NCBI GenBank assembly: GCA_017428115.1 | Contig: JAFRRK010000052.1 | Location: forward strand, 884-64,883 | Direction of reading: 5' to 3' | Length of the DNA stretch: 64,000 nt | Source of the DNA: Bacteroidales bacterium | GTDB lineage: Bacteria; Bacteroidota; Bacteroidia; Bacteroidales; P3 | In this document: piece after piece, positions 458 to 45,481 of the stretch | How the letters are laid out: each line of letters opens with the position of its first letter | How positions within the stretch are numbered: the stretch's first letter is position 1 | Position numbers and translations under genes: made by a program | The notes under the pieces: model-generated | What the model was told of the DNA's origin: nothing | The model's input: only the letters and a program-made list of their open reading frames with translations | Databases searched by the model: none

Positions 458-2257
458 ATGACATTCGCAGATCTCTATAAGAGGCTACATATTTGGCGTT
501 TGCGGCACATATCAGAGCAGTCGTACCTGTTGCTGCTGAGTGTCGTGGTAGGTGTGTTTAGCGGTCTGGCGGCCGTGTTGCTCAAAACGGTGGTACACCT
601 TTCGGGACAACTGGTGATGAATTTCGGCAATACACACGACTTCACCGGCGGGGGCAACATACTCACCTTCGTCACTCCATTGGTAGGCATACTGCTAACC
701 ATTCTATTTGTGCGTTTTGTGGTGCGTGGCGACATTGGCCACGGTATTCCCAGCGTGCTGCTCTCCATCTCCCGACACAAAGGCAAGCTGCCACCCCGCA
801 ACATGTATTCATCGCTTGTTGCCTCCACCCTCACGGTTGCCTTTGGTGGCAGCGTGGGTCTAGAGGCGCCCATTGCCTCTACTGGCAGTGCCATAGGCTC
901 CAACGTGGGCCGATTCTTCCATGTAAGCCCCCGTGGTGTAAAGCTGTTGCTAGGCTGCGGTGCTGCGGGAGCCATTGCCGGCATCTTCAAGGCCCCATTG
1001 GCGGGAGTGCTGTTCACGGTGGAGGTGCTTATGTTCGACATGACCATGACCACTGCCGTACCCTTGCTCATCTCCGCCCTATCTGCCTCAACCGTAGCCT
1101 ACTTCCTGATGGGGCACGACGTCCAGTTTGCCTTTAAAGTCACAGAGGACTTCACCCTACACCAAATACCGTTCCTCATGGTGCTGGGGGTATTTTGCGC
1201 CTTTAGCTCTGTCTACTTCCTGCGTTGCACCGACTGGGTGGAGTCGTGGTTCTCGAGGCGTAAGAACTGGATGCGTAAATGGCTGGTTGGCGGCGTGGTG
1301 CTGGGAGTGATGATATTCCTCTTCCCACCGCTGTATGGCGAAGGATACTGGGCGCTCACCGAGCTGCTCAATGGTGCCAACGACGACGCACTGTTTGCCA
1401 ACAGCGTTTTTAACATATTCCGAGACAACTCGTGGGTAGCCCTTGCCATCCTATTTGTGCTCATACTGCTCAAGCCCATAGCCACAGCCACTACCATAGG
1501 CAGCGGCGGCGTGGGCGGCACCTTTGGTCCCTCACTTGTTGTAGGCGGCCTCAGCGGCTACTTCATCGCTGCCCTGGGCAACCAATTGGGACTGCCCCCG
1601 CAGTCGACCGCCAATTTCGCCCTCGTGGGCATGGCGGGAGTGATGACCGGCGTGATGCACGCCCCTTTCATGGGGGTATTCCTCATTGCCGAAATCACTG
1701 GCGGCTATGCCCTTATGATACCGCTCCTTATCACTTCCACAGTCACCTACATCTGTGTACAGCCCTTTGAGAATCATTCCATCTATGCTCGCAAACTGGC
1801 TCTTAAGGGAGACCTTATGACCCACAATAAAGATGCCTCAGCCTGGCACCTAATGGACCTCCAGAAACTTATCGAAACCAACTTTGCCACCGTACCTGAA
1901 GATGGCACTCTACGCGATATCGTTGAAGCCATCAAACACTCTAAGCGCAACCTCTTCCCCGTTGTAGATGCCGAAGGCAAATTCCTCGGCCTAATTGTCA
2001 TGGACGACCTACGACAGACCATTTTCGAGACAGAGTTATACGACAAACTGACTGTCAAGGAGCTGATGATGACTTTCGAAGACAAAGACATAGTCCATTC
2101 CAGCGAGTCACTTGTAGATGTGGTCAACAAGTTCCAACTAAGCAACCGCTACAACCTCATCGTAGTTGACGACAGCGGACACTATCTCGGCTTCCTCTCA
2201 CGTGCCAACACCTTCTCCGCCTACCGCCGATTCATCTCCCAAAGTTCAGAAGAATAG
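458..2257 (+). CDS. ClC family voltage-gated chloride channel with C-terminal CBS pair
   Basis: 599 aa and polytopic. It has ClC selectivity-filter-like motifs (GGSVGLEAP, GIFKAPLAG, GVGGTFGPSL) and a C-terminal tail of about 140 aa with a CBS-like repeat (NLFPVVDAEGKFLGLI ... NLIVVDDSGHYLGFLS). Confidence 0.9.
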   Translation: MTFADLYKRLHIWRLRHISEQSYLLLLSVVVGVFSGLAAVLLKTVVHLSGQLVMNFGNTHDFTGGGNILTFVTPLVGILLTILFVRFVVRGDIGHGIPSVLLSISRHKGKLPPRNMYSSLVASTLTVAFGGSVGLEAPIASTGSAIGSNVGRFFHVSPRGVKLLLGCGAAGAIAGIFKAPLAGVLFTVEVLMFDMTMTTAVPLLISALSASTVAYFLMGHDVQFAFKVTEDFTLHQIPFLMVLGVFCAFSSVYFLRCTDWVESWFSRRKNWMRKWLVGGVVLGVMIFLFPPLYGEGYWALTELLNGANDDALFANSVFNIFRDNSWVALAILFVLILLKPIATATTIGSGGVGGTFGPSLVVGGLSGYFIAALGNQLGLPPQSTANFALVGMAGVMTGVMHAPFMGVFLIAEITGGYALMIPLLITSTVTYICVQPFENHSIYARKLALKGDLMTHNKDASAWHLMDLQKLIETNFATVPEDGTLRDIVEAIKHSKRNLFPVVDAEGKFLGLIVMDDLRQTIFETELYDKLTVKELMMTFEDKDIVHSSESLVDVVNKFQLSNRYNLIVVDDSGHYLGFLSRANTFSAYRRFISQSSEE

Positions 2258-2277: not shown

Positions 2278-2615
2278 TAACCCAAATCGGTCATTAGGGT
2301 TTATGCCAGATTAGTATTTGTTTCGAGCAGATTGACCTCATCGCTGGCGAACGTTGCGTAAAGCGAGAGCAGAGGAAGCTTGCTTGCTATGCCGAGCCAC
2401 AGCAATGTCAACGAAGTTAAGGCGTAGCGGGCTACGGCGAGACAGGGATGTGGACAAGATGCCGAACGTTACCCAATGCGAGAGCATAGCAAGCTTGCTT
2501 GCTATGCCGAGCCCAAGTAACGTCATGGAGCATAAAGAAATGCTGATATGGCATAAACAGACCTGAAAAAAGGAGATTAATTGAAAAGTCGGTCTAATGA
2601 CCGATTTGGGTTTAA
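2278..2615. repeat. 338-bp element bounded by inverted repeats (MITE-like or long-hairpin) with an internal ~65-nt direct repeat
   Basis: The termini TAACCCAAATCGGTCATTAG (2278-2297) and CTAATGACCGATTTGGGTTTAA (2594-2615) are reverse complements with one indel. The internal direct repeats at about 2347-2410 and 2461-2525 each contain the palindrome AGCAAGCTTGCT. The element lies between convergent genes. Confidence 0.6.
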
Positions 2616-2827
2616 CAAAAAAAGGTCGATTTTCTGGATTATAATCCAAAAATTATATATTTTTTTGGATTACGTTCCAACAAATCCATTTTATTAGTTG
2701 TATTAGTGCGTAAGTCAAACAGTCACTCATTTGAGAATCCGTTAGTCTTTGATGCGCCAAGTACTAACACGTTAACTTCAAAAAGACTCACACATTAACA
2801 AGTTAACACATTAACACATTCCTCCGC

Positions 2828-3739
2828 TTATTCTTCATCATTCCCATACTTGTCCAACATTGCCTTTATCTCTTCTTTCATCTCATCCCGTAGTGATTCG
2901 GGTTTCAGCACCTCCACCCTGCTGCCCAATGAGAGTATCTTCTGTTTAAAGTCAAAGGTCGGGCGCACACGAACCGAGAAGACCGAGTATTCCTCATTCC
3001 GTCTCAGTTCCAGTTGGGAGTGATGAAGAGGGAGCGACCGCAGATAGTTGGCCTGAAAAGCATCCACTTTTATCCAAACACTTTCGACGTTCACGTCATC
3101 CCCAAGAATGATGCCATAGCTGTCTTTAAACATCTCCTCCACATCGAAATCGGGGTCTCTCGTGTATGTCTCCTCTTGGATTTCAATATTGCTAATCCTA
3201 TCCAGCGCAAAGATATGATGCGGCATATCCTCAGTGTACTTGCCGACTACGTACCAGCGACGTTCAAACATCTTCAACGCATGGGGTCGGAAGTCGGTGT
3301 AGTGCGTTACATTGTCGCGCCAGTATGCGCCATAGTCGAACCTCATCATCCGCAACTCCTTCATGGCCTGGAGTATGGCGGGCAGTGGGTCGGTGTGACT
3401 CTCTTCTATGGCGATATATTGTGCCAACTCTTGGCTGTCCATCAGAATCCGGTTCACAGCAATAGAGTTGAGCATCCACTGACGGAAATAGCCGTTCTTG
3501 CCGCTGTCGGCTATACGATAACGGTACACGCCGCCCGACACGTAACATTCAATTTCTATTCCGAAAATATCCTTTATCTCCTCGCGGTGACGATGGAATG
3601 TGCGGTCAGAATAAAGGCGACCACCATTAATATCGTCATTGAAATAATAAGCATCGGCAATCTGCTGGAGCGTCAACCCCACATTGCCCGCCTTCATCAC
3701 AGTATCGACAAGCCAGATATATTTCTTCAAGGGTGTCAT
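2828..3739 (-). CDS. WYL-domain transcriptional regulator (wHTH-WYL-WCX architecture, BrxR/CapW-like)
   Basis: The ORF 2828..3940 is trimmed to the internal ATG at 3739 (MTPLKKYIWLVDTV...). The N-terminal HTH-like segment is LTLQQIADAYY. The central region ...ALKMFERRWYVVGKY...IFALDRI is typical of WYL domains. Length is about 303 aa. Confidence 0.8.
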   Translation of the reverse strand: MTPLKKYIWLVDTVMKAGNVGLTLQQIADAYYFNDDINGGRLYSDRTFHRHREEIKDIFGIEIECYVSGGVYRYRIADSGKNGYFRQWMLNSIAVNRILMDSQELAQYIAIEESHTDPLPAILQAMKELRMMRFDYGAYWRDNVTHYTDFRPHALKMFERRWYVVGKYTEDMPHHIFALDRISNIEIQEETYTRDPDFDVEEMFKDSYGIILGDDVNVESVWIKVDAFQANYLRSLPLHHSQLELRRNEEYSVFSVRVRPTFDFKQKILSLGSRVEVLKPESLRDEMKEEIKAMLDKYGNDEE

Positions 3740-3755
3740 AGGTTGTTCTTGTTGA

Positions 3756-4079
3756 TTAAAAAAAATGAAATCGACATAGAGACTTGCCAGCAATTGCACC
3801 ATGTTGAGTGGTATGTACAAATTTTGCGACAACCACTTTACCTTGCCTTCCGCCTTCAGTTTGAACTTGTGCAATTTTTGCACAGGTTGCCTCCCGTTCC
3901 AACTCTTCTGCCTTGTAGATATTGTTGATATGACGAACAATAGAAGTTCTGTCAGTCAGGAAAAGCTCTGCCATCTGTGCTTGTGTCATCCACACAGTTT
4001 CATTCTCAAACCTCACGTCAATCTGTGTGTTGCCATCGGCAGTCTGGTAGATGATTATCTTGTCATTAACGTTCTCCAT
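3756..4079 (-). pseudogene. RhuM-family (virulence protein RhuM-like) N-terminal stub
   Basis: The first ~79 aa (MENVNDKIIIYQTADGNTQIDVRFENETVWMTQAQMAELF...IAQVQTEGGR) match the N-terminus I recognise from ~330-aa RhuM-family proteins. The remainder is unrelated sequence and the ORF stops at 107 aa. Confidence 0.6.
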
Positions 4080-4124
4080 AATCCTATAACGTCACCTGTA
4101 TCATTTTATTGCATGGCAAAAACC

Positions 4125-4484
4125 TCATTTCCCCTCTATTACCTCTTGCATATCTTGCACCAAACAACGCAATGTCTTAAGGCGTTTGATTTGTCGGGAA
4201 TACTCATCCTTGTCAAAATAGAGTGGCACCTCGTGAAAAGGCAGCTGCAATGCGAAGAGTGCTTGCTCCCGTGTAACGTGGTACCGTTTCATCATTGCTT
4301 TGATACGTTCCCTGTTATCGGGAAACTCTACAACCATGTCGGCAATCACCTGCACACTAAAACCTATCATCTCACAAACTTCCGAACATTCAATTACCTT
4401 ATCCAAAAACTCTGGCGTCACCTCTTCTGTAACCGTACACGGGGTATCTAATCCCCGAAATCTTGATTCTGCATATAGTTTCAT
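4125..4484 (-). CDS. hypothetical 119-aa protein, co-transcribed downstream of the ParE-like gene
   Basis: Clean ORF whose start lies 17 nt after the ParE-like stop on the same strand. I recognise no motif. Confidence 0.55.
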   Translation of the reverse strand: MKLYAESRFRGLDTPCTVTEEVTPEFLDKVIECSEVCEMIGFSVQVIADMVVEFPDNRERIKAMMKRYHVTREQALFALQLPFHEVPLYFDKDEYSRQIKRLKTLRCLVQDMQEVIEGK

Positions 4485-4501
4485 AATGTCAATCTTGTTT
4501 G

Positions 4502-6400
4502 TTAATATGGTGTATTGATGTCATTGTCTTCAACGCGTAAATTGCGCATTATAAACTCGCGACGTTCTGGAGTATTCTCGCCCATATAGAATGAGAGAAC
4601 GCTTTGAGTGTCGAAGTCTTCTGGAAGTACTACAGGGTCGAGTCGCATGTCTTTGCCTATAAAAGTCTTAAACTCCTCAGGGGATATTTCTCCAAGCCCC
4701 TTGAATCGGGTAATCTCAGCATTGGGAGTATTTTGGATAGCTACGATGCGCTCTTCATTGGTATAACAATAAGTATTCTTTTGCTTGTTACGTACACGGA
4801 AAAGAGGAGTCTGTAAGATGAATACATGGCCTGTCCGAATGAGCTCTGGATAAAAACGAAGGAAGAATGTGAGCAAGAGAAGCCGGATATGCATACCATC
4901 AACATCGGCATCAGTGGCTATAACAACTCTATTATATCGTAAATTCTCAATACCGTCATAAACGGCAAGAGCATTGTGCAGGAGAAGAAGTTCCTTGTTG
5001 TTGAAAATATCCTCTATGGTTTTCAGATTATAGGTATTCTTGGTTTTCCCACGTAAAGAGAAAACTGCCTGAGTTTTGACATCACGGCTTTGTGTGATAG
5101 ACCCTGAGGCCGATTCACCTTCAGTAATGAAGATGGTACTTTCCAAACGTAGGGTGTGATGGGTGTTGTAATGTATGTGGCAGTCGCGTAGCTTGTTGTT
5201 ATTTAGAGCGACTCTTTTACTATTATCTTTTGCAACCCTTTTAATATCCGAAATTTGCTTACGTTCCTTCTCGTTGGCGTTGATTTTTTGAAGGAGTGCA
5301 TTAGCTGTCTCGTTGTGAATATGAAGATAGTTATCAAGTTGGCGTTTGAGAACATCATACACATAGGTTTTTAACAGAGGACTGTCGTTGCTCCCGTCAA
5401 CCTTGTTGGGTTCGAGACGTGTGGAACCTAATTTGGTTTTAGTTTGTGCCTCAAATACGGGTTCTTGTATACGTATACATAAGGCACAGACGAGACCTTG
5501 ACGGATGACCTCAGGTGAGTAGTCTTTCTTAATAAAATCTTTCACTACACGGGCATAAGCCTCTCGGAAGGCACTCTGGTGGGTACCTCCCTCGGTAGTA
5601 TGCTGTCCGTTAACAAACGAATAGTAATAATCGTTACTTTGGCCATTGATATGAGTGAAGGCGGCTTCAAAGTTGTCCTCCTTGATGTGAATGATGGGAT
5701 AGAGGGATTTCGATTGAAGGTTGTTCTCCAACAAGTCGAGTAGGCCGTTCTTTGAGTAATAGCGCCGACCATTATAGTAAATAGTGAGACCGCTGTTAAG
5801 ATAACAATAATACCAGATACGCCTTTCAATATGCTCCTCAACAAAGTGATAGTCGCCAAATAGTTTTCGGTCAGGGATGAATTCAACAAGTGTTCCAGAT
5901 TCGGTATTCGTGTCGGGAACGATGCCGCTGTCACTGACAAGATTGCCATCAGCGAATTGTGCGCAGCGACACATACCATCTCTGAACGACTGCACTTTGA
6001 AATAACTACTGAGGGCATTTACCGCTTTGATACCTACTCCATTCAAACCAATAGACTTTTTAAAAACCTTGCTGTCATATCTGGCCCCTGTATTGAGCTT
6101 TGAGATTGCATCAACAAGTTTGCCTAATGGAATACCACGACCATAGTCACGGATGCTAACACACCTCTCGTTAAGGTTAACTGTAATATCTATCTTCTTT
6201 CCGAATCCTGATGTAAACTCGTCAATAGAATTGTCCATCACCTCCTTGATTAGTACATAGATGCCGTCGTCATGGGATGAACCGTCACCGAGCTTGCCTA
6301 TATACATACCTGGACGGAGACGAATATGTTCCATATCTTCAAGGTGAATAATGGTATCGTCATTATACGCAATTGCGGAGAGGCTGTCAGTCTGTTCCAT
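4502..6400 (-). CDS. parE: type IIA DNA topoisomerase subunit B, ParE (topo IV B)-type, all catalytic motifs intact
   Basis: Start trimmed to ATG 6400 (MEQTDSL...). Motifs: HIRLRPGMYIGKLGDG (ParE-type N-terminus), GHKL N-box EVMDNSIDE, G1 DYGRGIP, G2 GLNGVGIKAVNALS, QTK loop EAQTKTKLGS, TOPRIM ITEGESASGS and ATDADVDGMHIRLLLLTFF, and KGLGEISPEEF. Confidence 0.9.
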   Translation of the reverse strand: MEQTDSLSAIAYNDDTIIHLEDMEHIRLRPGMYIGKLGDGSSHDDGIYVLIKEVMDNSIDEFTSGFGKKIDITVNLNERCVSIRDYGRGIPLGKLVDAISKLNTGARYDSKVFKKSIGLNGVGIKAVNALSSYFKVQSFRDGMCRCAQFADGNLVSDSGIVPDTNTESGTLVEFIPDRKLFGDYHFVEEHIERRIWYYCYLNSGLTIYYNGRRYYSKNGLLDLLENNLQSKSLYPIIHIKEDNFEAAFTHINGQSNDYYYSFVNGQHTTEGGTHQSAFREAYARVVKDFIKKDYSPEVIRQGLVCALCIRIQEPVFEAQTKTKLGSTRLEPNKVDGSNDSPLLKTYVYDVLKRQLDNYLHIHNETANALLQKINANEKERKQISDIKRVAKDNSKRVALNNNKLRDCHIHYNTHHTLRLESTIFITEGESASGSITQSRDVKTQAVFSLRGKTKNTYNLKTIEDIFNNKELLLLHNALAVYDGIENLRYNRVVIATDADVDGMHIRLLLLTFFLRFYPELIRTGHVFILQTPLFRVRNKQKNTYCYTNEERIVAIQNTPNAEITRFKGLGEISPEEFKTFIGKDMRLDPVVLPEDFDTQSVLSFYMGENTPERREFIMRNLRVEDNDINTPY

Positions 6401-6434
6401 AATGATGTTGCTATTGTTTTTATATTTCAAAATG

Positions 6435-6442
6435 CAAAAATA
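6435..6442 (-). promoter_or_regulatory. -7 box (TATTTTTG on the minus strand) of the ParE-like operon
   Basis: TAnnTTTG match about 35 nt upstream of ATG 6400. Confidence 0.5.
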
Positions 6443-6449
6443 CAACAAA

Positions 6450-6472
6450 GGTGTGCCAAATCATGACACACC
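6450..6472 (-). promoter_or_regulatory. island operator copy 1 (23-bp inverted repeat)
   Basis: Plus strand reads GGTGTGCCAAATCATGACACACC. The half-sites GGTGTGCCA and TGACACACC are near-perfect reverse complements. The motif sits 7 nt upstream of the -7 box. Confidence 0.6.
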
Positions 6473-6563
6473 TCTATTTTATTTTCAATAGACTTGAAAC
6501 CTTACAGTGAATATATTCTCACAAGCAATTCTTGTTTTCCATTTTTTTTGTTCTTTCGAGATG

Positions 6564-6571
6564 CAAAAGTA
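6564..6571 (-). promoter_or_regulatory. second -7 box (TACTTTTG on the minus strand), part of a duplicated promoter module
   Basis: TAnnTTTG match with operator copy 2 located 7 nt upstream. Confidence 0.4.
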
Positions 6572-6578
6572 TAAAACG

Positions 6579-6601
6579 GGAGTGCCACATCGTAACGCAC
6601 C
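6579..6601 (-). promoter_or_regulatory. island operator copy 2
   Basis: Plus strand reads GGAGTGCCACATCGTAACGCACC. The architecture and the 7-nt spacing to a -7 box match copy 1. Confidence 0.55.
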
Positions 6602-6617
6602 TTAAAAATATACCTAA

Positions 6618-7052
6618 TTAGTACATGCTGGCTATTCTTTCTTCAACTAAAGACACTATTGATTCAGCATATTTTTTATGGATATAATCTATAATAGACG
6701 TAGTTTTGGTTCTCGGATTTGTCGTCCATATCAAATCTGCATCTAATAGATTAGTTATCCTTTCGACCTCATTACAGGTTGATCCAGTTGTTCGTGAAGC
6801 ACATACGATTATTTTACAACCATTATCTACTAACTCATTCAGTGTTTCTAACATCCTTGAGTTTGGGTCTCCTTGGCTTTCCACTCCAACGAGAACACCA
6901 TTAACATCCACAATACCAAGAATATCTCCATCATCTCTCAACACCTGAACTTTTCTTGTGTATTTCTTTGAAAGAACATTGTACACTTCTCTAACGGACG
7001 AGGACTTTCCTTGCTGGGCAGAACCCCTATTTACAATTACGAGTGGCTTCAT
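6618..7052 (-). CDS. small (144 aa) P-loop-like protein
   Basis: A Walker-A-like GSAQQGKSS lies at aa 10-18 right after a beta-strand-like MKPLVIVN. A hydrophobic strand KIIVCASR follows later. The start is 11 nt after the upstream gene's stop. Confidence 0.55.
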   Translation of the reverse strand: MKPLVIVNRGSAQQGKSSSVREVYNVLSKKYTRKVQVLRDDGDILGIVDVNGVLVGVESQGDPNSRMLETLNELVDNGCKIIVCASRTTGSTCNEVERITNLLDADLIWTTNPRTKTTSIIDYIHKKYAESIVSLVEERIASMY

Positions 7053-7063
7053 GCTGCTGATTT

Positions 7064-7783
7064 TTATATGATTATTTTTTTATAGAAATCATGAACTGCA
7101 TTTATCATGCCTTGGTCATCATGAGATCGAGGAGATGGGTGATAGTCATCTATTAATAACAGATTGCTCTCTTGGCAAAAATGGCACCATTCATTGTACT
7201 GCAAGAAAACCATATCTGAATAAATATCTTTTGCTATATTCAGCAGGGTTCCACTTCCTCCTCCACATACAATAACATTGGGATTTAATATATTTCTAAT
7301 TTGTTCAACGATGAAATTCCTATCTCTTTCGTAATATGACTGTATAGTACTATTATATACTTTACTTCCGCCTGATATTTTCTTAACATTTACAATTGCC
7401 ATAGGATATGGCAATGCTAACTTAAAATATTCTTCACGAGTTTTATCAAAAACTGGTAGATGATTGGCATCTACTTCGTTCAACGCCCAAATACATTTAA
7501 TCATCGTCATAAAAGTTCGATGGACATTTATCTCATCTGTATCATAGAACGCCCACTCTCGGTAATCACAACCAGGATTTCCATTCGTGTCTTTTACGAG
7601 AAATAACACTTTTCGCTTTGTATTAACCCATTTGTCAACTTCCGCATATTCATCTTTGCAATTCGGGTCTCTATAATATATAAGTCCATCAAAGCAGAAT
7701 ATTTTTTGCATCTCTTCGGAATATGAATTCTTCCAACGAATGCATAATTCTGTTTCCTTTTTATCAAATTCCTTTCCATTCAT
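7064..7783 (-). CDS. hypothetical protein with SMUG-like uracil-DNA-glycosylase-superfamily motifs
   Basis: VLFLVKDTNGNPG (aa 59-71) resembles UDG motif A (SMUG1 GMNPG). HPSPRS (aa 215-220, nt 7124-7141) resembles UDG motif B (HPSPRN or HPSPLS). The intervening strand NVIVCGGGSG fits the UDG alpha/beta topology. Confidence 0.6.
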   Translation of the reverse strand: MNGKEFDKKETELCIRWKNSYSEEMQKIFCFDGLIYYRDPNCKDEYAEVDKWVNTKRKVLFLVKDTNGNPGCDYREWAFYDTDEINVHRTFMTMIKCIWALNEVDANHLPVFDKTREEYFKLALPYPMAIVNVKKISGGSKVYNSTIQSYYERDRNFIVEQIRNILNPNVIVCGGGSGTLLNIAKDIYSDMVFLQYNEWCHFCQESNLLLIDDYHPSPRSHDDQGMINAVHDFYKKIII

Positions 7784-7803
7784 ATCTCATACTTGTTTTT
7801 AAA

Positions 7804-8163
7804 TCAATAATGATATTTCGTTGGGGGAATAATTATGCATGCTTCATTCTGATAAAAGAAACTACCTGATATCTTCTTGTTCTTAGGGGGTAATCCACAA
7901 CCTTTCTCATAAAAGGTCTCTGTTCGTATATCCCATGCAATTTCGGCATTTTCATCTTTAGTCAAAAAAAGAACCCGCAATGGACACTCGTTCCATAGTG
8001 TATTTTCTATACCACTCTCTTTCCGTCTCACTGCTTCATACTCATCAATGTAAAACACTCCTTTATTCATTATACCATCGAGAGCAAAACTATTGTCTTC
8101 TATCATTAACGACTTACGCCATTCTTCGAGAATTCTCTTATTCTCTGCAACGTAACCTTTCAC
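7804..8163 (-). pseudogene. decayed or truncated paralog of the SMUG-like gene
   Basis: GTG start, 119 aa. It aligns by eye with 7064..7783: FALDGIM vs FCFDGLI, RVLFLTKDENA vs KVLFLVKDTNG, KKISGSF vs KKISGGS. It lacks the NPG loop and the entire HPSP half. Confidence 0.45.
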
Positions 8164-8182
8164 ATAAACATATTATTGCTTA

Positions 8183-8205
8183 ATTGTGCCACATCGTGAC
8201 ACTCC
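8183..8205 (-). promoter_or_regulatory. island operator copy 3 (different promoter context)
   Basis: Plus strand reads ATTGTGCCACATCGTGACACTCC. Here a T-run plus GCA lies upstream of the operator, and only a degenerate TAATATGT lies 7 nt downstream. Confidence 0.5.
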
Positions 8206-8232
8206 TGCAAAAAAAATATTGATTGTTTTCTA

Positions 8233-9453
8233 TTACACTAGGCGTTCTACAACTTTCTTGAATATTTCGGTAGTCTTAACATAGTCATATTGATTATCAA
8301 CATAATTTACATATACCCATCGTAGTTTTTCTGTGTGACTATAAAGAATGTCTTTTGTTTTTTGTGTTAGTAAATCTGTATCTAACAATTGGCCGTGATC
8401 TAAATATTCCACTTGACAATATAATGTTGAATAATGTGAACTATCCTTGTCAATACTTACTAACACTTCCTTTCCATCAAAAGGAACTATTATTCTAACG
8501 TTATTATCGGACTCTTTCTGGTCTTTACGTATAGATGGATACTTCTCAATAATATCCATCTCTGCTTTTCGGATTATACCAAATCCAATCTCATCAAACA
8601 TTGACTGAATCTCTTTTTGGAATTCGATAATATTTAATAAGTTTGCTTTAATCTTAGACAAACACTCGTTATCATTTTGGCAATCTTTAAGATTGAAGTA
8701 ATTTAAGAGATAATTTTTTAATTCCATATTCACTGTTTTTTGAATTGTTCGTAAATCAAATAATCCTTCCAAATAATCAACATATTGTTGGACGGCATTT
8801 ATCAAATATGTGTCTTTATACTTTATGTTAGGCAAAATATTATTTTTTAGCCATGGAAGAATGTTCTCTTTGAATGACAAATTGATGAATCTGTCCTCGA
8901 AAAGCTGTTGGTAATCTCCCCACGATTGAGAATTTGGTTCACTTCCTGTTTGAGAAAGATAGACAACAAAGATATCATTCTGATTAAAAAGACATTCTTT
9001 TGTCTTATCAATATATCTTGACAGCTGAGCCTCTTGATCCTGAGCATTGTATATTTTGTTTTCAATAATTATTGCATAATTGCCGACCTTATCCCTTACC
9101 CACAAATCAATACGAGCTTCTTCTTGTGTGATTTTTGGCTTTTTAATATTAATCCTATCAAATTGCCTCGATTTGCTCTTTGACTTTATATAGTCAACAA
9201 ATGATTGAAGAATCTCCCATTCTTCTCGTTCATTGACAAATTGAAGAAGTTTCAGAAGAATTCGACTATGTCCATTCTCATTAATATGGAGTTCGTCTAT
9301 CACATTGATGTGATACGGCAACTTCAGTTTCTCCTCCATATAACGTTTATGGAATTCTCTTGAGAAATTAAGAAGTTTTTTATATTCAATATCAACTGCA
9401 TGTATAATATTTTCATACAGTTTTAAGGCGGATTCTATTTCTTTTTCCGACAT
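8233..9453 (-). CDS. PD-(D/E)xK nuclease family protein
   Basis: RIDLWVRD ... YAIIIENKIYN supplies the D...(D/E)xK signature (D-x(n)-E-N-K). 406 aa and AT-rich. Confidence 0.7.
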   Translation of the reverse strand: MSEKEIESALKLYENIIHAVDIEYKKLLNFSREFHKRYMEEKLKLPYHINVIDELHINENGHSRILLKLLQFVNEREEWEILQSFVDYIKSKSKSRQFDRINIKKPKITQEEARIDLWVRDKVGNYAIIIENKIYNAQDQEAQLSRYIDKTKECLFNQNDIFVVYLSQTGSEPNSQSWGDYQQLFEDRFINLSFKENILPWLKNNILPNIKYKDTYLINAVQQYVDYLEGLFDLRTIQKTVNMELKNYLLNYFNLKDCQNDNECLSKIKANLLNIIEFQKEIQSMFDEIGFGIIRKAEMDIIEKYPSIRKDQKESDNNVRIIVPFDGKEVLVSIDKDSSHYSTLYCQVEYLDHGQLLDTDLLTQKTKDILYSHTEKLRWVYVNYVDNQYDYVKTTEIFKKVVERLV

Positions 9454-9476
9454 GATATAATATGCTTTTCGTGTTG

Positions 9477-9484
9477 CAAAGATA
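9477..9484 (-). promoter_or_regulatory. -7 box (TATCTTTG on the minus strand) upstream of the PD-(D/E)xK gene, without an operator
   Basis: Exact TAnnTTTG match about 25 nt upstream of ATG 9453. Confidence 0.4.
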
Positions 9485-9524
9485 CAAACATTTTTTATAT
9501 CTGCGCATTATATATCAAATAATT

Positions 9525-11207
9525 TCAAGATAAAAAACCTATTCGTCTGGTCTTGGCATTGTTAATCCGCTCGTTGTCACAATGGGGAGTAAGTAGGTCG
9601 ATTGTGGGAACATTGTTGCCATGCAGGATGGCATCAATGGCATAGTGGCGGGCGATATTCTCTATCTGGCCACCGCTAAAGTCGTACCGCTCGGCCAAAA
9701 GGGTGGCATCAGTGTCGCTTAGGTCGGGCAGCAGTTCATGCCAGATGGCGGTGCGGGCTTCCACTGTGGGTTTGTCGAAGCGTATCTTATAGAGGAAACG
9801 CCGCTCGAAAGCATTGTCCATATTCTGAGCCAGATTGGTGGTGGCAATCAGTATTCCGTCGAGGGTCTCCATCTCCTGTAAGATGATGTTCTGAAGCGAG
9901 TTCTCCATTTTGTCCACAGCACGTTCCGCACCCTCCTGTCGCTTGCCGATGATGGCATCTGCCTCGTTGAAGAGGAGGATGGGCACAAGGGTACTCTCTT
10001 TGACCCGCTGGCGGTAGGTATCGAAGAGAGCTTTCATGTTCTTCTCACTCTCACCGACCCACTTGCTCTTCATCTCGGAGATGTCCACCTGCATAATGTC
10101 GCGACCTGTGCGTCGAGCCAATTGCATCACCGTCTCGGTCTTACCCGTGCCAGGAGCCCCATAGAAGAGACAGGTGAGTCCACAACGGAAACCCTGCTCT
10201 TGCAGACGGGCATGAATGTCGCTGTAGTTCTTCTCCTCAAGCAGACGGGCAAGGTCGTCAATACGATGGGTGATGTCGTCGGAGTAGAACAAGGTACGGG
10301 GCTTGATGTCGGAAGCGATAATCATATTGCGCAGCGTCCTCTTCCCTTCGAGTGAGGGAAGTTGCAACTCGTCAAGCAAGTCTCGCTTCGCCTTCATTGT
10401 AAGCCTATAATGCTCCTTGTCCCCCATCCCATCGTTGTTGCTATATTCTATCAAACCCAATCGTTGAAGAAAGTTGACACCCTGCTCCAATTCCGTCCTT
10501 ATCATACGCATATCCTTCTTGCTATATATGCAATCAATATCATGAAAGCCAATACAATCATCGTTGTTGTTCACAAACAGATGACAGAACATGATAAGCA
10601 GAACAAATTCTTTGTCAAATTCTTTGTCACATATTTCGGGGATGAGGTTCTGCACCTTTTGTACGAACAACAGCTGCTGGTTATGGTGAAACAGCATCTT
10701 GAAACGTTCTACGGCAGCAGCAATATCCATCTCATCATCGTCCACCCTGTCAACAATGTCTGCAAACTCATTGAACAACTCATGGCAGGTAAGCCCGGAA
10801 CAATCCTTGGGCGTGTAGGGCTTATTCACTTTGAAAGCTTCCACCACATCAATAGGCACACGGTAGGAAACAGAACTCGACGAACGGCTACGAACAATCA
10901 AACCTCGGCGTACCAACTCGTCAATATCATTCATATAACGGATCATCCGCGTGGTACGGCAGCCCGTATATTTTGCAATGTCGCTTGCCTCGATTCTTGA
11001 GTCATCACTTTGGTCAAGAAACAACGCCATCATCACGCTCTGCTCTTTTGTGAGGCTGAGCTTGTCCGACAGATGCTTAATAAAACGCGCTGCCTTGCAA
11101 TAAAACTCTGGCGACAACTGCGATTCTTTTGCCAATTCCACGATGTTCTCGACTGCCGAAAGTAAGTCTAACTTTCTTTTCCCTTGTGTTTTACTTGCTG
11201 TTTCCAT
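9525..11207 (-). CDS. classical-clade AAA+ ATPase with an N-terminal region of about 340 aa carrying two wHTH-like modules
   Basis: Start trimmed to ATG 11207 (METASKTQGK...). Walker A is FYGAPGTGKTE. Walker B region is ILLFNEADAI (Asn where Asp is usual). The SRH/Arg-finger region is NLAQNMDNAFERRF. wHTH-like segments are IAKYTGCRTTRMIRYMNDIDELVRRGLIV and GVNFLQRLGLIEY. Confidence 0.85.
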   Translation of the reverse strand: METASKTQGKRKLDLLSAVENIVELAKESQLSPEFYCKAARFIKHLSDKLSLTKEQSVMMALFLDQSDDSRIEASDIAKYTGCRTTRMIRYMNDIDELVRRGLIVRSRSSSSVSYRVPIDVVEAFKVNKPYTPKDCSGLTCHELFNEFADIVDRVDDDEMDIAAAVERFKMLFHHNQQLLFVQKVQNLIPEICDKEFDKEFVLLIMFCHLFVNNNDDCIGFHDIDCIYSKKDMRMIRTELEQGVNFLQRLGLIEYSNNDGMGDKEHYRLTMKAKRDLLDELQLPSLEGKRTLRNMIIASDIKPRTLFYSDDITHRIDDLARLLEEKNYSDIHARLQEQGFRCGLTCLFYGAPGTGKTETVMQLARRTGRDIMQVDISEMKSKWVGESEKNMKALFDTYRQRVKESTLVPILLFNEADAIIGKRQEGAERAVDKMENSLQNIILQEMETLDGILIATTNLAQNMDNAFERRFLYKIRFDKPTVEARTAIWHELLPDLSDTDATLLAERYDFSGGQIENIARHYAIDAILHGNNVPTIDLLTPHCDNERINNAKTRRIGFLS

Positions 11208-11233
11208 ATCAATAATCTTTTTATATCCGACTG

Positions 11234-11241
11234 CAAAAATA
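11234..11241 (-). promoter_or_regulatory. -7 box (TATTTTTG on the minus strand) of the AAA+ gene
   Basis: TAnnTTTG match about 27 nt upstream of ATG 11207. Confidence 0.5.
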
Positions 11242-11248
11242 CGACAAT

Positions 11249-11271
11249 GGTATGCCATTTCGTGACACACC
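11249..11271 (-). promoter_or_regulatory. island operator copy 4
   Basis: Plus strand reads GGTATGCCATTTCGTGACACACC, located 7 nt upstream of the -7 box as in copies 1 and 2. Confidence 0.6.
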
Positions 11272-11363
11272 CAATAATTTATTTATTATTAAAAAAAAAG
11301 ATAACTTATATGCTTTGTCGGCAAAACGGCCAAGCATTCAGGGATTCTTATAGTTCTTAATTG

Positions 11364-12407
11364 TCAATCCTTGATGACAAACGCCTGTTGCTCGCCGTCG
11401 ATGTTGAATTGGAGGGTGGCACCGTCGGGGCGGACGTCGATAGTGACGGGTGCGCCCATCACCAAGGGGAGATTCACCTTGCCATGGCCTGCAGGGAGGC
11501 CACAGAGGAGGGGAATCTTGTATTTTTCAATATATTGATGCAGCATTGCCTCGACACTCTCGTAGGAAAACTCTCTCTCACAATCGGTAAAGTCACCCAA
11601 CACAATGCCCTTGCAGCGGTCTAACACCCCGTTCATGGCAAGGATGGTGAACTGGCGGTCGATATTGTGCATGCCCTCCTCTACCTCTTCGATAAAGAGG
11701 ATGAGGTCGTTTCCAATAGTGGCATCGGCCTGAGTGCCAAGGTTGGGCGCAAAGGTGCAGATGTTGCCACCTACCAGTATTCCACTGGCATGGCCCACGA
11801 TGTTTTGGGGATGCGGCGGCAACTCGTAGCGAGGCACCTGCCCCATTAGCAGGTCGCGCAACAGAGTGCTATTCAAATCGGTGCCGCCTTTGGCCAAGAA
11901 CATGCTCATCGTACCGTGGATGCTCATCACGCCCGCCCGAGCCAACAAGCCATGTAGTGTTGTGACGTCGCTGAACCCCACCAGCCACTTAGGGTGTGCC
12001 CTCCACTCGGCAAGAGGTATTTGGTCGATATAATGAATAGTGCCATACCCACCACGATTGCAAATAATTGCCTTGATGCTGGTATCGGCCAACGCCCAAC
12101 GGAGGTCGCTCACCCTTTCTTCCACAGTGCCGGCATATCTGCCCAAGTAGACCTTGCCGACATTGGGCCCTACCACGGGCACCAACCCCCATCCTCGCAG
12201 TACCTCGGCGGCTTTTTCCACCTCATCCATCGACTTAAAATATGAAGGTGACACAAGTGCCACCCTATCGCCCACCTTCAGATAGTCGGGCTGCATGCAA
12301 CGCAGTGCGACAGAACCCCTAATGGGCTTGCCCTGACCATCTGCACCGATTGGCGACAACGTGAATAGCAAGCCAACCATCAATAGAATAAAACCATTAT
12401 ATTTCAT
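11364..12407 (-). CDS. LD-carboxypeptidase (peptidase S66, LdcA-like), secreted
   Basis: Start trimmed to ATG 12407 (MKYNGFILLMVGLL..., signal peptide). S66-like segments are VALVSPS, GGYG, GFSDVTTLH and the C-terminal GHG. Confidence 0.8.
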   Translation of the reverse strand: MKYNGFILLMVGLLFTLSPIGADGQGKPIRGSVALRCMQPDYLKVGDRVALVSPSYFKSMDEVEKAAEVLRGWGLVPVVGPNVGKVYLGRYAGTVEERVSDLRWALADTSIKAIICNRGGYGTIHYIDQIPLAEWRAHPKWLVGFSDVTTLHGLLARAGVMSIHGTMSMFLAKGGTDLNSTLLRDLLMGQVPRYELPPHPQNIVGHASGILVGGNICTFAPNLGTQADATIGNDLILFIEEVEEGMHNIDRQFTILAMNGVLDRCKGIVLGDFTDCEREFSYESVEAMLHQYIEKYKIPLLCGLPAGHGKVNLPLVMGAPVTIDVRPDGATLQFNIDGEQQAFVIKD

Positions 12408-12539
12408 ATCTTTATGATTAAAAATAAGACCCTTACAACCATGCAAAGACAATTGCCCAAACATCCATCCTAGAGAAAGGGACAACACCAGCTAAAGCGA
12501 TGCAAAGATAGGCATTTTATTTCAATCCATAAAAAAAAC

Positions 12540-41809: not shown

Positions 41810-41882
41810 AGCGACAGACGGGGTTCGAACCCGCGACCTGCGGCTTGGGAAGCCGCCGCTCTGCCAACTGAGCTACTGTCGC
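41810..41882 (-). tRNA. tRNA-Gly (anticodon CCC)
   Basis: The minus strand reads GCGACAGTAGCTCAGTTGGCAGAGCGGCGGCTTCCCAAGCCGCAGGTCGCGGGTTCGAACCCCGTCTGTCGCT and folds by hand into a cloverleaf. Acceptor stem is GCGACAG/CTGTCGC. Anticodon stem is GCGGC/GCCGC. The anticodon loop TTCCCAA gives CCC. T-loop is TTCGAAC. Confidence 0.9.
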
Positions 41883-41969: not shown

Positions 41970-44243
41970 TTATCTGCGACGCTCGCCACCACCACTGCGG
42001 CGACGTTCACCGTCACGGCGGGGACCACGATCGCCATCGCGGCGAGGACCTCGGTCACCATCACGGCGAGGACCACGGTCGCCTTCGCGACGCGGGCCAC
42101 GTGCCGGTTTCTCTTCCTCGTAGCCTTCTGGCTTGGGGAGGAGAGCCTTGCGGCTGAGCTTAATCTTGCCGGTCTTCTCATCTATGTTGATGACCTTCAC
42201 CTGGAACTCGTCACCCTCTTCAATCAAACCTTCAAGCGTCTCAGTACGGCCCCAGTCATACTCGCTGATGTGCATCAAGCCCTCTTTGCCTGGCAGGAAC
42301 TCGAGGAAGGCGCCAAACTCTACAATGCTCACCACCTTGGCATCATACACCTGCCCCACCTCGGGAACAGTGCAAATCTCCTTAATCCACTTAATGGCGG
42401 CTGCAATATCGTCCTTGTTCTGCGAAGCCACATCCACAATGCCGAACTCGCCCACCTCTTCGATATTGATGATGGTGTTGGTCTCGGACTGAATCTTCTG
42501 TATAACCTCACCACCCTTGCCAATAACAGCACCGATAAAGTCCTTAGGGATCTGGATCTGTTCAATACGGGGCACAAAGTCCTTATAGTCGGCACGGGGT
42601 TCGGGAATGGTTTCAAGAATCTTGTCGAGGATGTAGAGCCTACCCTGACGAGCCTGCTCAAGGGCCTTGGCCAACACATCGTAGCTCAGGCCGTCCACCT
42701 TGATATCCATCTGGCAGGCAGTGATACCGTCGCGGGTGCCACACACCTTAAAGTCCATGTCGCCCAAGTGGTCCTCATCGCCCAAGATGTCGCTAAGCAC
42801 AGCCCACTTGTCGCCCTTGCTGATAAGGCCCATGGCAATGCCCGCCACAGGCTTGCGAAGTCTCACACCCGCATCCATCAATGCCATGCAGCCGGCACAC
42901 ACAGTGGCCATCGACGAAGAGCCGTTGCTCTCGAGGATATCAGACACCACACGGATGGTATAGGGACAATCCGTCTCGCTGGGGAGCACCTCCTTGAGGG
43001 CGCGCCAAGCCAAATGGCCGTGACCCACCTCGCGGCGGCTGGTGCTGCCGCTGCGCTTCACCTCGCCAGTGGCAAACCCGGGGAAATTGTAGTGCAGCAA
43101 AAAGCGGCGCATGCCCTCTATCACCGCACCGTCAATCTTCTGCTCATCGAGCTTAGTGCCCAAGGTGCAGGTAGCGAGCGACTGCGTCTCGCCACGGGTG
43201 AAGATGGCACTGCCGTGGGCCGAAGGCAGATAGTCGGTTTCGCACCAAATGGGGCGAATCTCGTCAAGCTGACGGCCGTCCAAACGGGTACGCTCTGCCA
43301 GCACCATGTCGCGCATAGCCTCGCGCTCGGTGTCGTGGTAGTAACGGTCAATCATAAACTTAATATCATCGGTGAGGGTCTCCTCGGTATAGTTGGCATC
43401 GATAAACTCCTGCTTGATAGCTTCAAAGCCCTCTTCGCGCTGATGCTTGTTGGCAATGCCCTGCTTGGAGAAGTCGTAGCACTTCTGGTACACAGCGTCG
43501 TGGATGCGCTGGCGCAGCTCCTCGTCGTTCACCTCGTGGCAGTACTCGCGTTTCTCGGTCTTACCAGTCTCGACGGTAAGCTCGTCCAGCACGCGGCACT
43601 GTATCTTGATAGCCTCGTGGGCAGCCTTCAACGCGCCCAGCATCACATCCTCGCTCACCTCCTTCATCTCGCCCTCCACCATCATGATATTGTCGGCGGT
43701 GGCGGCAACAATAAGGTCGAGGTCGGCACGCTCAATGTCCTCCATGGGGGTATTGATGACATACTCGCCGTCGAGATACGACACGCGCACCTCTGAGACA
43801 GGGCCGTTAAACGGTATGTCGGACACTGCCAGAGCGGAAGCAGCAGCCAGTGCGGCCAGCTGGTCGGGCATAGTCTCGTGGTCGCCCGAGATGAGGGTTA
43901 TCTGCACCTGCACCTCGGCATGGAAGTTGTCGGGGAAGAGGGGACGCAGTGCACGGTCCACCAAGCGGGCAATCAAAATCTCATGCTCCGAGGGGCGTGC
44001 CTCGCGCTTGAAGAAGCCACCAGGGAAACGCCCCATGGCGGCATACTTCTCTTGGTAATCAACGGTGAGGGGCATGAAATCGACGTTCTCGCCCACCTCT
44101 TTCTTAGCGCATACGGTGGCAAGAAGCATCGTGTCGTTCATCCGTACCACGGCAGAGCCGTCGGCCTGTTTGGCCAGTTTTCCAGTTTCAATTTCAATCA
44201 TGCGGCCGTCGCCGAGATCAAACTTCTTTGTGATAATGTTCAT
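41970..44243 (-). CDS. pnp: polyribonucleotide nucleotidyltransferase (PNPase) with an Arg/Gly/Asp repeat tail
   Basis: Start trimmed to [14 protein letters not shown]. It has two RNase PH domains, KH ([11 protein letters not shown]) and S1 ([20 protein letters not shown]), followed by a ~50-aa GPRRDGDR-repeat extension. Confidence 0.92.
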
Positions 44244-44425
44244 TTGTTCCTTTATTGTTTCTTTGTTTCCGCTACGTGTCGCACCGTGCGGCACGCATTT
44301 GCCTAGCATAAACACCTCTATGCAAAGGCGATATAATGATTATTAAAAGCTCTTTCAAAAAAGCCTCCCCAGAGAACCTAGGGAGGCCAACCATAACCAA
44401 ATAAATTATGAAAAACTATTACTTT

Positions 44426-44695
44426 CTACTTTCTCAAGTTAAGCTTCTTGATAAGGGCACGATAGCGCTCAATATCAATAGCCTTCAAATAATCGAGCTG
44501 ACGGCGGCGCTTGCCAACCAGACCGACCAATGCGCGCTCGCTTACTTGGTCTTTCTTATTCTTCTTCATCAGCTCAGTCAGATGCTGGATTCTGTATGTG
44601 AACAGGGCCACCTGCGCCTCAACCGAACCCGTATCTTGGGCGTTTTTACCATACTCGGCGAAAATCTCTTCTTTTTTCTCTTTTGTCAGATACAT
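44426..44695 (-). CDS. rpsO: 30S ribosomal protein S15
   Basis: MYLTKEKKEEIFAEYG...GSVEAQVALFTYRIQHLTEL signature. Confidence 0.92.
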   Translation of the reverse strand: MYLTKEKKEEIFAEYGKNAQDTGSVEAQVALFTYRIQHLTELMKKNKKDQVSERALVGLVGKRRRQLDYLKAIDIERYRALIKKLNLRK

Positions 44696-44962
44696 AACTA
44701 TTTATACTGTTTTTTATCGTTCTTTATCCTTTCGAATTCGGCTGCAAAATTACAACTTTTTTTTCATCCACAAACATTTTTTCGCAAAAAACATTCAATT
44801 TAACTCTTATTAAGAAAGTTCAACCGCCCAACAGCCCACCTTCCACCCCTCCCCAGCGCACATTGCCATTGAAATACAACTGCAACTAGCCATCAAGCCC
44901 ACCTGCCACTCCGCCCCCCTCTTGGTGCCCTTACACTACCGCCCACACTCCCTTCCGTGAAG

Positions 44963-44993
44963 CGAAGGCACGACGAAACCACGACGAAGCCAC
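44963..44993 (-). repeat. weak partial copy D of the tandem 11-mer core of the repeat family
   Basis: CGAAGGCACGA CGAAACCACGA CGAAGCCAC resembles 30244-30270. The flanks are not clearly alignable. Confidence 0.3.
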
Positions 44994-45212
44994 AACGCCC
45001 CACCATGCCATTTACGACACCGCAACACCTCCCCAAACCTCCACACCTGTCCACTCCGACCCTGTTCGCCCTCCCCACTACGGCAACCCAGCAGCACACC
45101 AACAGCAATCGAGTAGCCAGTGGGCACCGGCAGGGGCGACGCAAAGCACGAGCGAGAAGAAAAAATGACGGCCATGAGTACACAAAAAAATGCCCAAATG
45201 CATTTTTTTTGC

Positions 45213-45220
45213 TATATTTG
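45213..45220 (+). promoter_or_regulatory. -7 box (TATATTTG) at the GC-rich/AT-rich junction, about 260 nt upstream of the 1609-aa gene
   Basis: TAnnTTTG match preceded by T8. Composition switches to AT-rich immediately downstream. Confidence 0.4.
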
Positions 45221-45481
45221 CAGTTGGTAAGCAATAGTGCCGCCGAAACATAAAACACATATAACAAAACAGATAGAACAGATAGAAATAATTAAATACA
45301 TATAATAAAGGCGTTTTCGCTTTTCTTGCCACAACTGAAATCTCGACAATTTCATTTTCATTACACAAGAGAAGGGAACGTTCATGGTTTCCGTGAACTT
45401 TTCTTGTTTGTAATGATAGGTAGTCGAGAACCTCAGTTGTGAACAAAAAGGTTTCACGGTTTTTATTACAAAGTCACAAGT

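Follow-up and report, generated by a model that had tools for sequence, protein, structure and literature searches.

To our knowledge, WYL regulators accompany defence islands and the examples dissected so far are Proteobacteria repressors only, and we know of almost nothing on the regulation of immunity in the Bacteroidales, which are dominant in gut and rumen microbiomes. The operators of the repressor BrxR are 11-N5-11 and 10-N5-10 repeats lying within or downstream of the regulator's own promoter (PMC9122601), and the sites of DriD, a WYL activator, overlap the -35 position at an identical distance to the -10 element, in promoters without a recognisable -35 (cryo-EM study, PMC13004042). 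Here we analyse a stretch of 64,000 nucleotides from a Bacteroidales bacterium (GenBank assembly GCA_017428115.1, contig JAFRRK010000052.1, positions 884 to 64,883; hereafter the window, with position 1 as its first letter), in which a 23-bp palindrome occurs four times within a putative defence island that also encodes a WYL protein. Judged by the comparative counts described below (62 modules, a -7 box at +7, conserved positions and the association with WYL genes), this element is an island-specific promoter component that travels with one WYL family, and purifying selection acts on its sequence, symmetry, polarity and spacing.

The four copies (6450-6472, 6579-6601, 8183-8205 and 11249-11271, numbered 1 to 4 in this order) are present with the coordinates and sequences given in a first-pass annotation, and a search of all 64 kb with GGTGTGCCA-N5-TGACACACC at up to 3 mismatches returned the same four sites and no other, as had been noted by eye. 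Dinucleotide-preserving shuffles gave a mean chance expectation of 0.02 sites against the 4 observed, and no shuffle reached 6 strand-matches. All four copies face the same way with respect to the minus-strand genes, with the sense consensus GGTGTGTCA-YGATN-TGGCACACC; the dyad is imperfect, a T.G standing at position 7/17 in nearly all copies. The -7 boxes (TAnnTTTG) at 6435-6442, 6564-6571 and 11234-11241 on the minus strand were likewise confirmed to lie exactly 7 nt from a palindrome each, and among the 57 such boxes in the window these 3 are the ones with a palindrome, the other 54 being without. Copy 4 (11249-11271, minus strand; sense GGTGTGTCACGAAATGGCATACC) is the island's first module and heads an AAA+ gene, its -7 box TATTTTTG (11234-11241, minus strand) following 7 nt downstream. 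Copy 2 (GGTGCGTTACGATGTGGCACTCC; 6579-6601, minus strand; -7 box TACTTTTG at 6564-6571, minus strand) is the upstream member of a conserved tandem pair and lies 129 nt further upstream than copy 1 (GGTGTGTCATGATTTGGCACACC; 6450-6472, minus strand; -7 box TATTTTTG at 6435-6442, minus strand), which heads the unit from a GyrB-like gene to the WYL gene. Copy 3 (GGAGTGTCACGATGTGGCACAAT; 8183-8205, minus strand) is decayed: its proximal end is lost, the arm ending in CACAAT, TAATATGT stands at the box position (8168-8175), and a GTG start codon follows 4 nt further on. The sites lie within a low-GC stretch (0.36 vs about 0.48). Two further matches to a position weight matrix (PWM) were put down to chance, a weak one at 49184-49206 that is antisense inside a 1609-aa open reading frame (ORF), and one at 3418 inside the WYL coding sequence, where it is conserved as coding in homologues.

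For comparison, 712 kb of DNA was fetched from related loci of rumen Bacteroidales and scanned with the PWM, a search proposed in the first-pass annotation. The loci (referred to by L numbers) came mostly from contig look-ups with exact proteins and from a scan of metagenome DNA, a scan of a genome collection with the WYL protein giving 9 loci; homologues of this protein in Bacteroidales metagenomes amounted to 856 proteins at E up to 1e-10. The PWM scan led to 62 unique modules, with the motif confined to these islands and a layout of dyad, 7 nt, TAnnTTTG, then CA. TAnnTTTG was found at +7 in 60 modules (55 exact, 5 with one mismatch) and at any other offset in none (0/62), and the 7-nt spacer took 25 different sequences. 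Positions 5-9, 11-12 and 15-19 of the dyad are conserved in at least 56 of the 62 modules while the flanks vary, and positions 3/21 and 4/20 change together (T-A to A-T, and G-C to A-T through G.T). When 241 million metagenome records were scanned with the palindrome only, 27 loci were obtained, all from rumen-type assemblies except one GC-rich contig (L024), and the -7 box stood at +7 in all of them but L024. The exact 23-bp match on this unrelated contig (L024 317-339), which lacks a -7 box, was put down to chance, about 1 match being expected for a 40-bit pattern among this number of records. The pattern had no match in 2.9 million viral contigs, and a phage origin was rejected. From the enrichment in the window, the -7 box count and the scan of related loci, the palindrome is specific to these islands. 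It is no generic promoter element; a common element without enrichment in the island was the outcome that the first-pass annotation had named as overturning its reading.

Each module heads a different cassette (GmrSD, Mrr, DUF932, AAA+, GyrB-like, toxin-antitoxin or unknowns), and the islands are mosaic. Their recurrent architecture is a variable array of co-directional genes, usually ending in a RhuM/Fic-WYL pair, and the array genes encode GmrSD, Mrr_cat, McrBC/nSTAND3, PLDc_2, AAA, AAA_14/DUF4143, DUF932, RelE-type toxin-antitoxin pairs, GyrB-like proteins and many unknowns. L001 and L007 carry different cargo, although their chromosomal site is that of the island in the window.

That the WYL protein is the best candidate for binding the box, as proposed from the window, gained support from the related loci. 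Thirteen distinct WYL-anchored loci, for which at least 5 kb of sequence was available upstream, were compared (the window, W, and L001, L003, L006, L007, L010, L013, L043, L044, L047, L049, L053 and L056), and by PWM scan 12 of them have the box upstream of the WYL gene on the same strand. These loci share 59-97% protein identity and lie in at least 7 chromosomal contexts. No module was found downstream of the WYL gene or on the opposite strand in any of them except L056, where two convergent arrays flank the WYL gene with a correctly oriented box in each. In 10 of the 13, including the window, the island ends with the WYL gene, and same-strand genes follow it in L043, L049 and L056. Within the window the candidate box-binding protein, a regulator of 303 aa with winged helix-turn-helix (wHTH), WYL and WCX domains, is encoded at 2828-3739 on the minus strand. 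The first-pass annotation saw no copy upstream of its own gene; the gene is in fact the last of four tightly packed minus-strand genes behind copies 1 and 2. The gaps between these genes (GyrB-like to WYL) measure 17, 45 and 16 nt and contain no TAnnTTTG, and a terminator-like hairpin is present after the WYL gene only (2589-2604), so that the simplest reading places the WYL gene at the distal end of the unit that copy 1 heads. No paper was found in the literature on this box, this WYL family or the RhuM/Fic-WYL pairing.

Pfam analysis of the protein led to a WYL domain (PF13280, 5.5e-9, above the cut-off) and a WCX C-terminal dimerisation domain (PF25583, 6.6e-13). An AlphaFold2 model with a mean predicted local distance difference test score (pLDDT) of 74.8 assigns residues 3-76 to a wHTH, 83-105 to a long linker helix, 119-191 to WYL and 219-299 to WCX; the modelled wHTH consists of three helices and a beta-hairpin (block pLDDT 77-90) and has no Pfam HTH match. 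In an alignment of 37 homologues with a mean column identity of 67%, the residues R46, F48, R50, H51, R52 and E54 of the recognition helix are invariant, as are K156, R161, W162, Y163 and G166 within or beside RRWYVVG, the signature motif of WYL, which would fit an invariant DNA target (the inner half-sites) and a conserved ligand pocket. A search of PDB sequences with the single protein gave marginal matches only. With a profile, DriD was matched at 2.5e-9 and PafBC at 1e-6, compared to 0.16 for BrxR and 0.3-0.67 for CapW, and full-length Foldseek alignments gave 6e-13 for DriD, 1e-10 for PafBC, 5e-6 for CapW and 9e-5 for BrxR. Membership in the CapW/BrxR clade was rejected on these profile E-values, with which the Foldseek ranking agrees. 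As far as profiles and the structural model reach, the protein belongs to the wHTH-WYL-WCX superfamily, within which it falls on the branch where the members studied so far activate transcription.

The dyad extends from 8 to 30 nt upstream of the -7 box. Its centre, at about -31, precedes the first T of the box by 19 nt, so that a -33 element would be expected at the dyad centre itself, where no TTTG recurs. For DriD, we infer a dyad centre 18-19 bp upstream of the -10 hexamer, because an engineered -35 hexamer replaces site positions 7-12 (didA sequences, PMC13004042 Methods). The half-site centres are 14 bp apart in the 9-N5-9 arrangement found here. The first-pass annotation had called the location a classic repressor-operator position; the palindrome does cover -33, but a repressor sign is not established by this, and the geometry matches that of DriD-activated promoters.

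From these data the palindrome is probably the box of the WYL regulator if the sign of regulation is left aside. Activation is favoured because the protein falls on the DriD/PafBC branch and the site has the DriD-type position at an invariant distance; the palindrome may be the box of an activator that senses single-stranded DNA (ssDNA), a more specific proposal to which we give a little less than an even chance. The 23-bp dyad would then be the regulatory half of a portable promoter module that heads the individual cassettes of mosaic anti-phage islands. An island-encoded wHTH-WYL-WCX dimer would bind it at about -31, where sigma region 4 would otherwise read -33. Upon binding of ssDNA or a related damage or infection cue to the WYL domain, the dimer would dock on all boxes and recruit RNA polymerase, and the cassettes would fire together, in the window along with the regulator's own operon.

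Several observations weigh against such an activator box. Among the WYL-anchored loci, L003 is the only one without a box. Two island types (L026/L028/L041 and L031) carry boxes and end in AAA_14, with no RhuM-WYL in cis; control of these islands in trans from a second island is plausible, because the WYL family occupies at least seven chromosomal contexts. The AAA_14 gene that precedes RhuM-WYL in some islands has its own, different palindrome-promoter (TTTTTTGGAATAGATTCCAAAAAA-GTTG-TATCTTTG), so autoregulation of the WYL gene is not universal and the regulator need not always be under box control. The AlphaFold2 model has a predicted template modelling score (pTM) of 0.40, with Foldseek TM-scores of about 0.43, and the sequence similarity to DriD and PafBC in phmmer and profile searches is confined to the WYL-WCX sensor part. 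The constant spacing and polarity are in part inherited through the shared ancestry of all modules. As for the sign, the defence-associated WYL regulators characterised so far, BrxR and CapW, are all repressors, acting on inverted repeats (N5-spaced for BrxR, a palindrome for CapW). The module has no -33 element and a -7 box near consensus; as Bacteroidetes promoters in general have a weak or undetectable -33 element (PMC7366714, also the source of the promoter consensus), its absence says little, and the near-consensus -7 box means that the promoter could be constitutively active. Our lean to activation is modest for these last reasons, namely the weak -33 of the phylum, the near-consensus -7 box and the repressors among all studied defence-linked WYL proteins.

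These last three points are those on which a repressor operator of the CapW/BrxR type would build, in which a WYL dimer at about -20 to -42 blocks RNA polymerase and an ssDNA or phage cue de-represses the cassettes. Evidence on the site, its specificity and its co-occurrence with the WYL gene is identical for both signs, the promoter elements suggest unaided activity, and a 9-N5-9 inverted repeat with a spacer of about 5 bp overlapping a promoter resembles the BrxR sites. However, the scores of the protein for DriD and PafBC are far better than those for CapW and BrxR, and its gene is found at the island's 3' end, whereas BrxR and CapW loci have the regulator gene upstream of the operator or divergent from it. 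Spacing that is exact to the single base over 25 different spacers, together with a fixed polarity, is what a face-of-helix contact with RNA polymerase predicts, whereas simple occlusion needs neither. A repressor operator is the main rival, and we regard it as a serious if rather unlikely explanation.

The first-pass annotation missed that the sense-strand RNA of the element can form a terminator-like hairpin. Its mean energy is -11.9 kcal/mol for the sense core and -17.2 with flanks, compared to -10.9 for the antisense strand; the sense hairpin is more stable than the antisense one in 50 of 52 modules, and at least 4 T occur in the 8 nt after the stem in 47 of 52. In an ungapped alignment of the 52 modules, pairing was 96% for the nine core pairs and 60% for the seven flanking pairs, the non-Watson-Crick cells being mostly G.U on the sense strand. 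The flanking pairs covary, with AU, GC, UA and CG all observed at the first of them; 0 of 500 shuffles reached the score, and slid controls gave about half of it. Copy 1 with its flanks forms a 15-bp stem of -22 kcal/mol that was flagged as terminator-like, copies 2 and 3 fold poorly (z about -1), and a test for stem-loop plus U-tract fails for both. Internal modules follow the preceding cassette closely, beginning 8-34 nt past its stop codon. No Rfam 15 family matched 2500-11500 at E up to 1, the only Rfam match of the window being a tRNA. Covariation, sense-strand G.U and a U-rich tail are properties of an RNA hairpin rather than of a protein site, and internal modules probably have a second role in terminating the cassette upstream of them. 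The sense-strand RNA of the dyad and its A-rich/U-rich flanks would end transcription coming from the preceding cassette, and the module would serve as insulator and regulated start in one.

Taken to its extreme, this would make the dyad nothing other than the stem-loop of the preceding cassette's intrinsic terminator, with a U-tract that happens to contain the next promoter and with no dedicated binding protein. The strand bias of the hairpin, the T-rich tail, the 15-bp stem of copy 1, the covarying flanks with their sense-strand G.U and the close distance to stop codons are all as expected for such a terminator. However, stem and loop are nearly invariant in sequence whereas the flanks merely covary, and apart from the exceptions given above the element never occurs without a -7 box at +7. 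Copies 2 and 3 fold poorly, the element tracks one WYL family, and the box is kept behind a divergent upstream gene at L025_8655 and L049_2038, where no terminator is needed. A terminator or insulator alone is thus improbable. The combination of terminator, WYL-activator box and -7 promoter in a three-in-one adaptor, which would let acquired defence genes join a damage- or infection-induced regulon, is put forward more tentatively than its parts, as a possibility rather than a likelihood.

A factor other than the WYL protein might also read the box, such as the RhuM N-terminal domain, one of the small proteins of families C5 and C22, the wHTH-like N-terminus of the AAA+ protein or a chromosomal regulator. 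Boxes in islands without a WYL gene in cis (L026/L028/L041 and L031) would be accounted for in this way, and C5/C22 proteins and RhuM recur beside the WYL gene. RhuM/Fic was nevertheless rejected as the binder, being absent in L044 and truncated in the window, and the C5 and AAA+ genes are missing from many box-bearing loci. As no candidate matched a recognised DNA-binding family and the WYL protein alone among the recurrent proteins is a predicted sequence-specific regulator, we consider another factor quite improbable. A small HTH gene behind the modules had been a further candidate; its frames, beginning MEKE and MQEYGK, turned out to be N-terminal stubs of DUF932 genes.

Such stubs allow the turnover of cassettes to be followed. 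DUF932 N-terminal stubs (MEKE[IL]ISPTEPRKAWDGVPGF...) were found behind modules that now drive GmrSD or RelE-type cassettes (L001 7453-7656; L007 about 5630 and 7800; L017, L018, L027, L032 and L041), which indicates that cargo was replaced downstream of a retained module. The ORF between the tandem boxes encodes the 22-aa MENKNCSWEEVHYTFIDLLIKI in L021 (about 3285-3350) and L037 and a 22-aa variant, MENKNCSWECVHYTFAHILKIK, in L025, and only 7 of its codons are left in the window; a micropeptide, a leader and a gene stub are all conceivable. The double-promoter unit is itself conserved ahead of different cassettes. The position of the stubs downstream of the promoter argues against recombination within the dyad and for the module as a stable, selected unit. 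Although cassette content differs at the same chromosomal site (window vs L001 and L007) and the proximal arm reads TGGCAC then TTG, the dyad is barely credible as an integron attC-like or invertase site for recombination or as a sigma-54 promoter (TGGCAC-N5-TTGC), as no island contains an integrase, invertase or recombinase domain, every cassette has its own -7 box, breakpoints lie downstream of promoters (gene remnants) and the outer arms covary within a site, and sigma-54 was rejected on its N4 spacing, a -12 dinucleotide that is mostly GT and the presence of a consensus sigma-A(Bfr) -7 box.

A second palindrome-promoter of different sequence, TTTTTTGGAATAGATTCCAAAAAA-GTTG-TATCTTTG-CA, was observed ahead of AAA_14/DUF4143 genes (L001 about 7690-7775; L009, L026, L028, L031 and L041), with a second GGAATATATTCC about 35 nt upstream of it. 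This suggests that modules of a palindrome and a -7 box are a wider design in these genomes.

In the window the island is flanked by a ClC channel gene (458-2257, plus strand) and an LD-carboxypeptidase gene (11364-12488, minus strand), and all genes between them are on the minus strand. Behind copy 4, the AAA+ ATPase gene (9525-11207, minus strand; family C8) encodes an IetA/IteA-like ATPase domain with an N-terminal extension (Pfam AAA, PADLOC IetA, NCBIfam IteA below the cut-off). It is followed by a gene for a PD-(D/E)XK nuclease (8233-9453, minus strand; PDDEXK_4, PADLOC PDC-S26) with its own palindrome-less -7 box, TATCTTTG, at 9477-9484 on the minus strand, 24 nt before the ATG; because of this box, the nuclease may be expressed independently of the upstream AAA+ gene. 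Copy 3 precedes an N-terminal fragment of family C1 (119 aa; 7804-8163, minus strand), and next to it lies a full-length C1 gene (239 aa; 7064-7783, minus strand), neither with family hits. The fragment looks like a decaying duplicate of the adjoining gene, a GTG replacing the ATG seen in L030. The label SMUG-like, given to 7064-7783 in the first-pass annotation, could not be maintained, as no Pfam, NCBIfam or PDB sequence matched. A gene for a C39 protein (6618-7052, minus strand; no family hits) follows, and behind copy 2 a remnant ORF of 8 codons (6519-6542, minus strand), MENKNCL plus stop, is all that this copy drives. Of the three operons that the palindromes had been thought to head, several transcription units are indeed marked, but copy 2 heads the 7-codon remnant only; clean operons are not present, since the degenerate box of copy 3 is fused to a gene fragment and the nuclease gene has a -7 box of its own.

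The copy 1 unit begins with a divergent GyrB/ParE-like paralogue of the type IIA topoisomerase B subunit (4502-6400, minus strand; HATPase, Toprim and GyrB_C domains). Its earlier designation as ParE-like holds insofar as it is a divergent paralogue of GyrB and ParE; its NCBIfam scores fall below the equivalog cut-offs, at about half of them. This orphan gene, with no A subunit gene adjacent, is a recurrent box-headed cassette (also in L030, L037 3508-5463 and L056 5557-7443), and its product may be an unrecognised defence or decoy protein. The 119-aa protein encoded next (4125-4484, minus strand) belongs to the recurrent island family C5 and has no family hit. C5/C22 small proteins of about 115-120 aa (window, L013, L021, L026, L037, L039 and L056) share xQ(Q/E)AEFxL...P...F(F) and recur, likewise without a family hit, at the 3' backbone of the islands, adjoining AAA_14 or RhuM-WYL. 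The third gene encodes an N-terminal RhuM/Fic fragment of 107 aa (3756-4079, minus strand; PADLOC PDC-S05). RhuM/Fic in related loci is a full 331 aa, with a stop codon overlapping the WYL start by 4 nt, as a conserved gene pair. A conserved segment, TGCAATAAAATGACACAATTGACGTTAT, was observed about 10-40 nt before the RhuM ATG (window 4086-4115, minus strand; L006, L007, L008, L010 and L013); it includes a half-site-like TGACAC motif and is possibly a single half-site or a translation-initiation region. Outside the island, a second low-GC stretch (44000-50400; 0.34-0.43), mostly taken up by the 1609-aa ORF (45482-50311, plus strand) and located downstream of a tRNA (41810-41882), may be another acquired region.

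One short box would define an entire regulon that is accessible to experiment, over dozens of cassette families, many of unknown function, and could serve as a handle for the discovery of new defence genes (C0, C1, C5, C7 and DUF932 proteins and the orphan GyrB-like protein). A fused terminator, box and promoter would explain how mosaic islands keep coherent regulation despite the turnover of their content. If the WYL protein is an activator, the mechanism of DriD and PafBC, with no -35 and a fixed distance, would be linked to phage defence and to the unusual promoter of the Bacteroidetes. If the three-in-one adaptor is correct, the islands would represent an integrase-less array of individually regulated cassettes that are swapped behind a fixed adaptor. 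With them, a WYL activator of the DriD/PafBC type, instead of a repressor, would for the first time govern a defence island, and an activator geometry would for the first time be defined for a Bacteroidetes sigma-A(Bfr) -7 promoter.

Among known systems, integron arrays also have exchangeable cassettes at a fixed chromosomal site with imperfect inverted repeats between them; here, in contrast, an integrase is absent, every cassette comes with a promoter of its own, and the repeat is 5' of the gene and conserved in sequence. Intrinsic (Rho-independent) terminators share the stem-loop and U-rich tract after a stop codon, the covariation and the G.U pairs on the transcribed strand, whereas the present element is conserved in sequence, is fused to a -7 box at a fixed distance and occurs without an upstream co-directional gene. 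PafBC with the RecA-NDp motif (mycobacteria, sigma adaptation), the second-closest structural relative, is a WYL activator with an ssDNA trigger, and its motif lies directly upstream of the -10 in promoters without a -35; it is, however, a heterodimer or fusion that uses one wHTH on an asymmetric motif and only with RNA polymerase, compared to a dyad and a single 303-aa chain here. BrxR and CapW (BREX, CBASS and defence islands) share the defence-island context, inverted repeats with a 5-bp spacer that are bound by a dimer (as predicted here) and, in pEFER, more than one box per island (R-BOX1 and R-BOX2), and CapW is known for ssDNA sensing. Their sequence relationship to the protein is weak (E 0.16-0.67), and their regulator heads the locus with boxes in or downstream of its own promoter, whereas in the present islands the regulator gene lies at the 3' end and every cassette is preceded by a copy of the box as a fixed promoter element upstream of it.

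Among solved relatives, DriD of Caulobacter crescentus is closest to the protein; it is an ssDNA-triggered activator composed of wHTH, three-helix bundle, WYL and WCX. In its regulon a homodimeric WYL regulator occupies a pseudo-palindromic site, as predicted for the dimer here, the site covers the -35/-33 place at an invariant distance to the -10/-7 element and recurs in several promoters, expression of the regulator itself is tied to it, and the half-site centres are 14 bp apart in both systems. DriD sites are 7-N7-7 (ATACGAC/GTCGTAT) compared to 9-N5-9 (GGTGTGTCA/TGGCACACC) in the present islands, and the phylum and sigma factor differ (here sigma-A(Bfr) with a -7 box), as do the targets, which are DNA-repair and division genes for DriD and defence cassettes here. 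The identity of the proteins is 18-20% (Foldseek, full-length), and the three-helix bundle is not evident in our model. In their working the present islands would resemble the WYL-controlled defence islands of BrxR and CapW, and in their geometry a DriD regulon. Compared to all these systems, new features of the present islands are the WYL clade, the phylum, the promoter type and a box that is repeated before each cassette and fused to a likely terminator.

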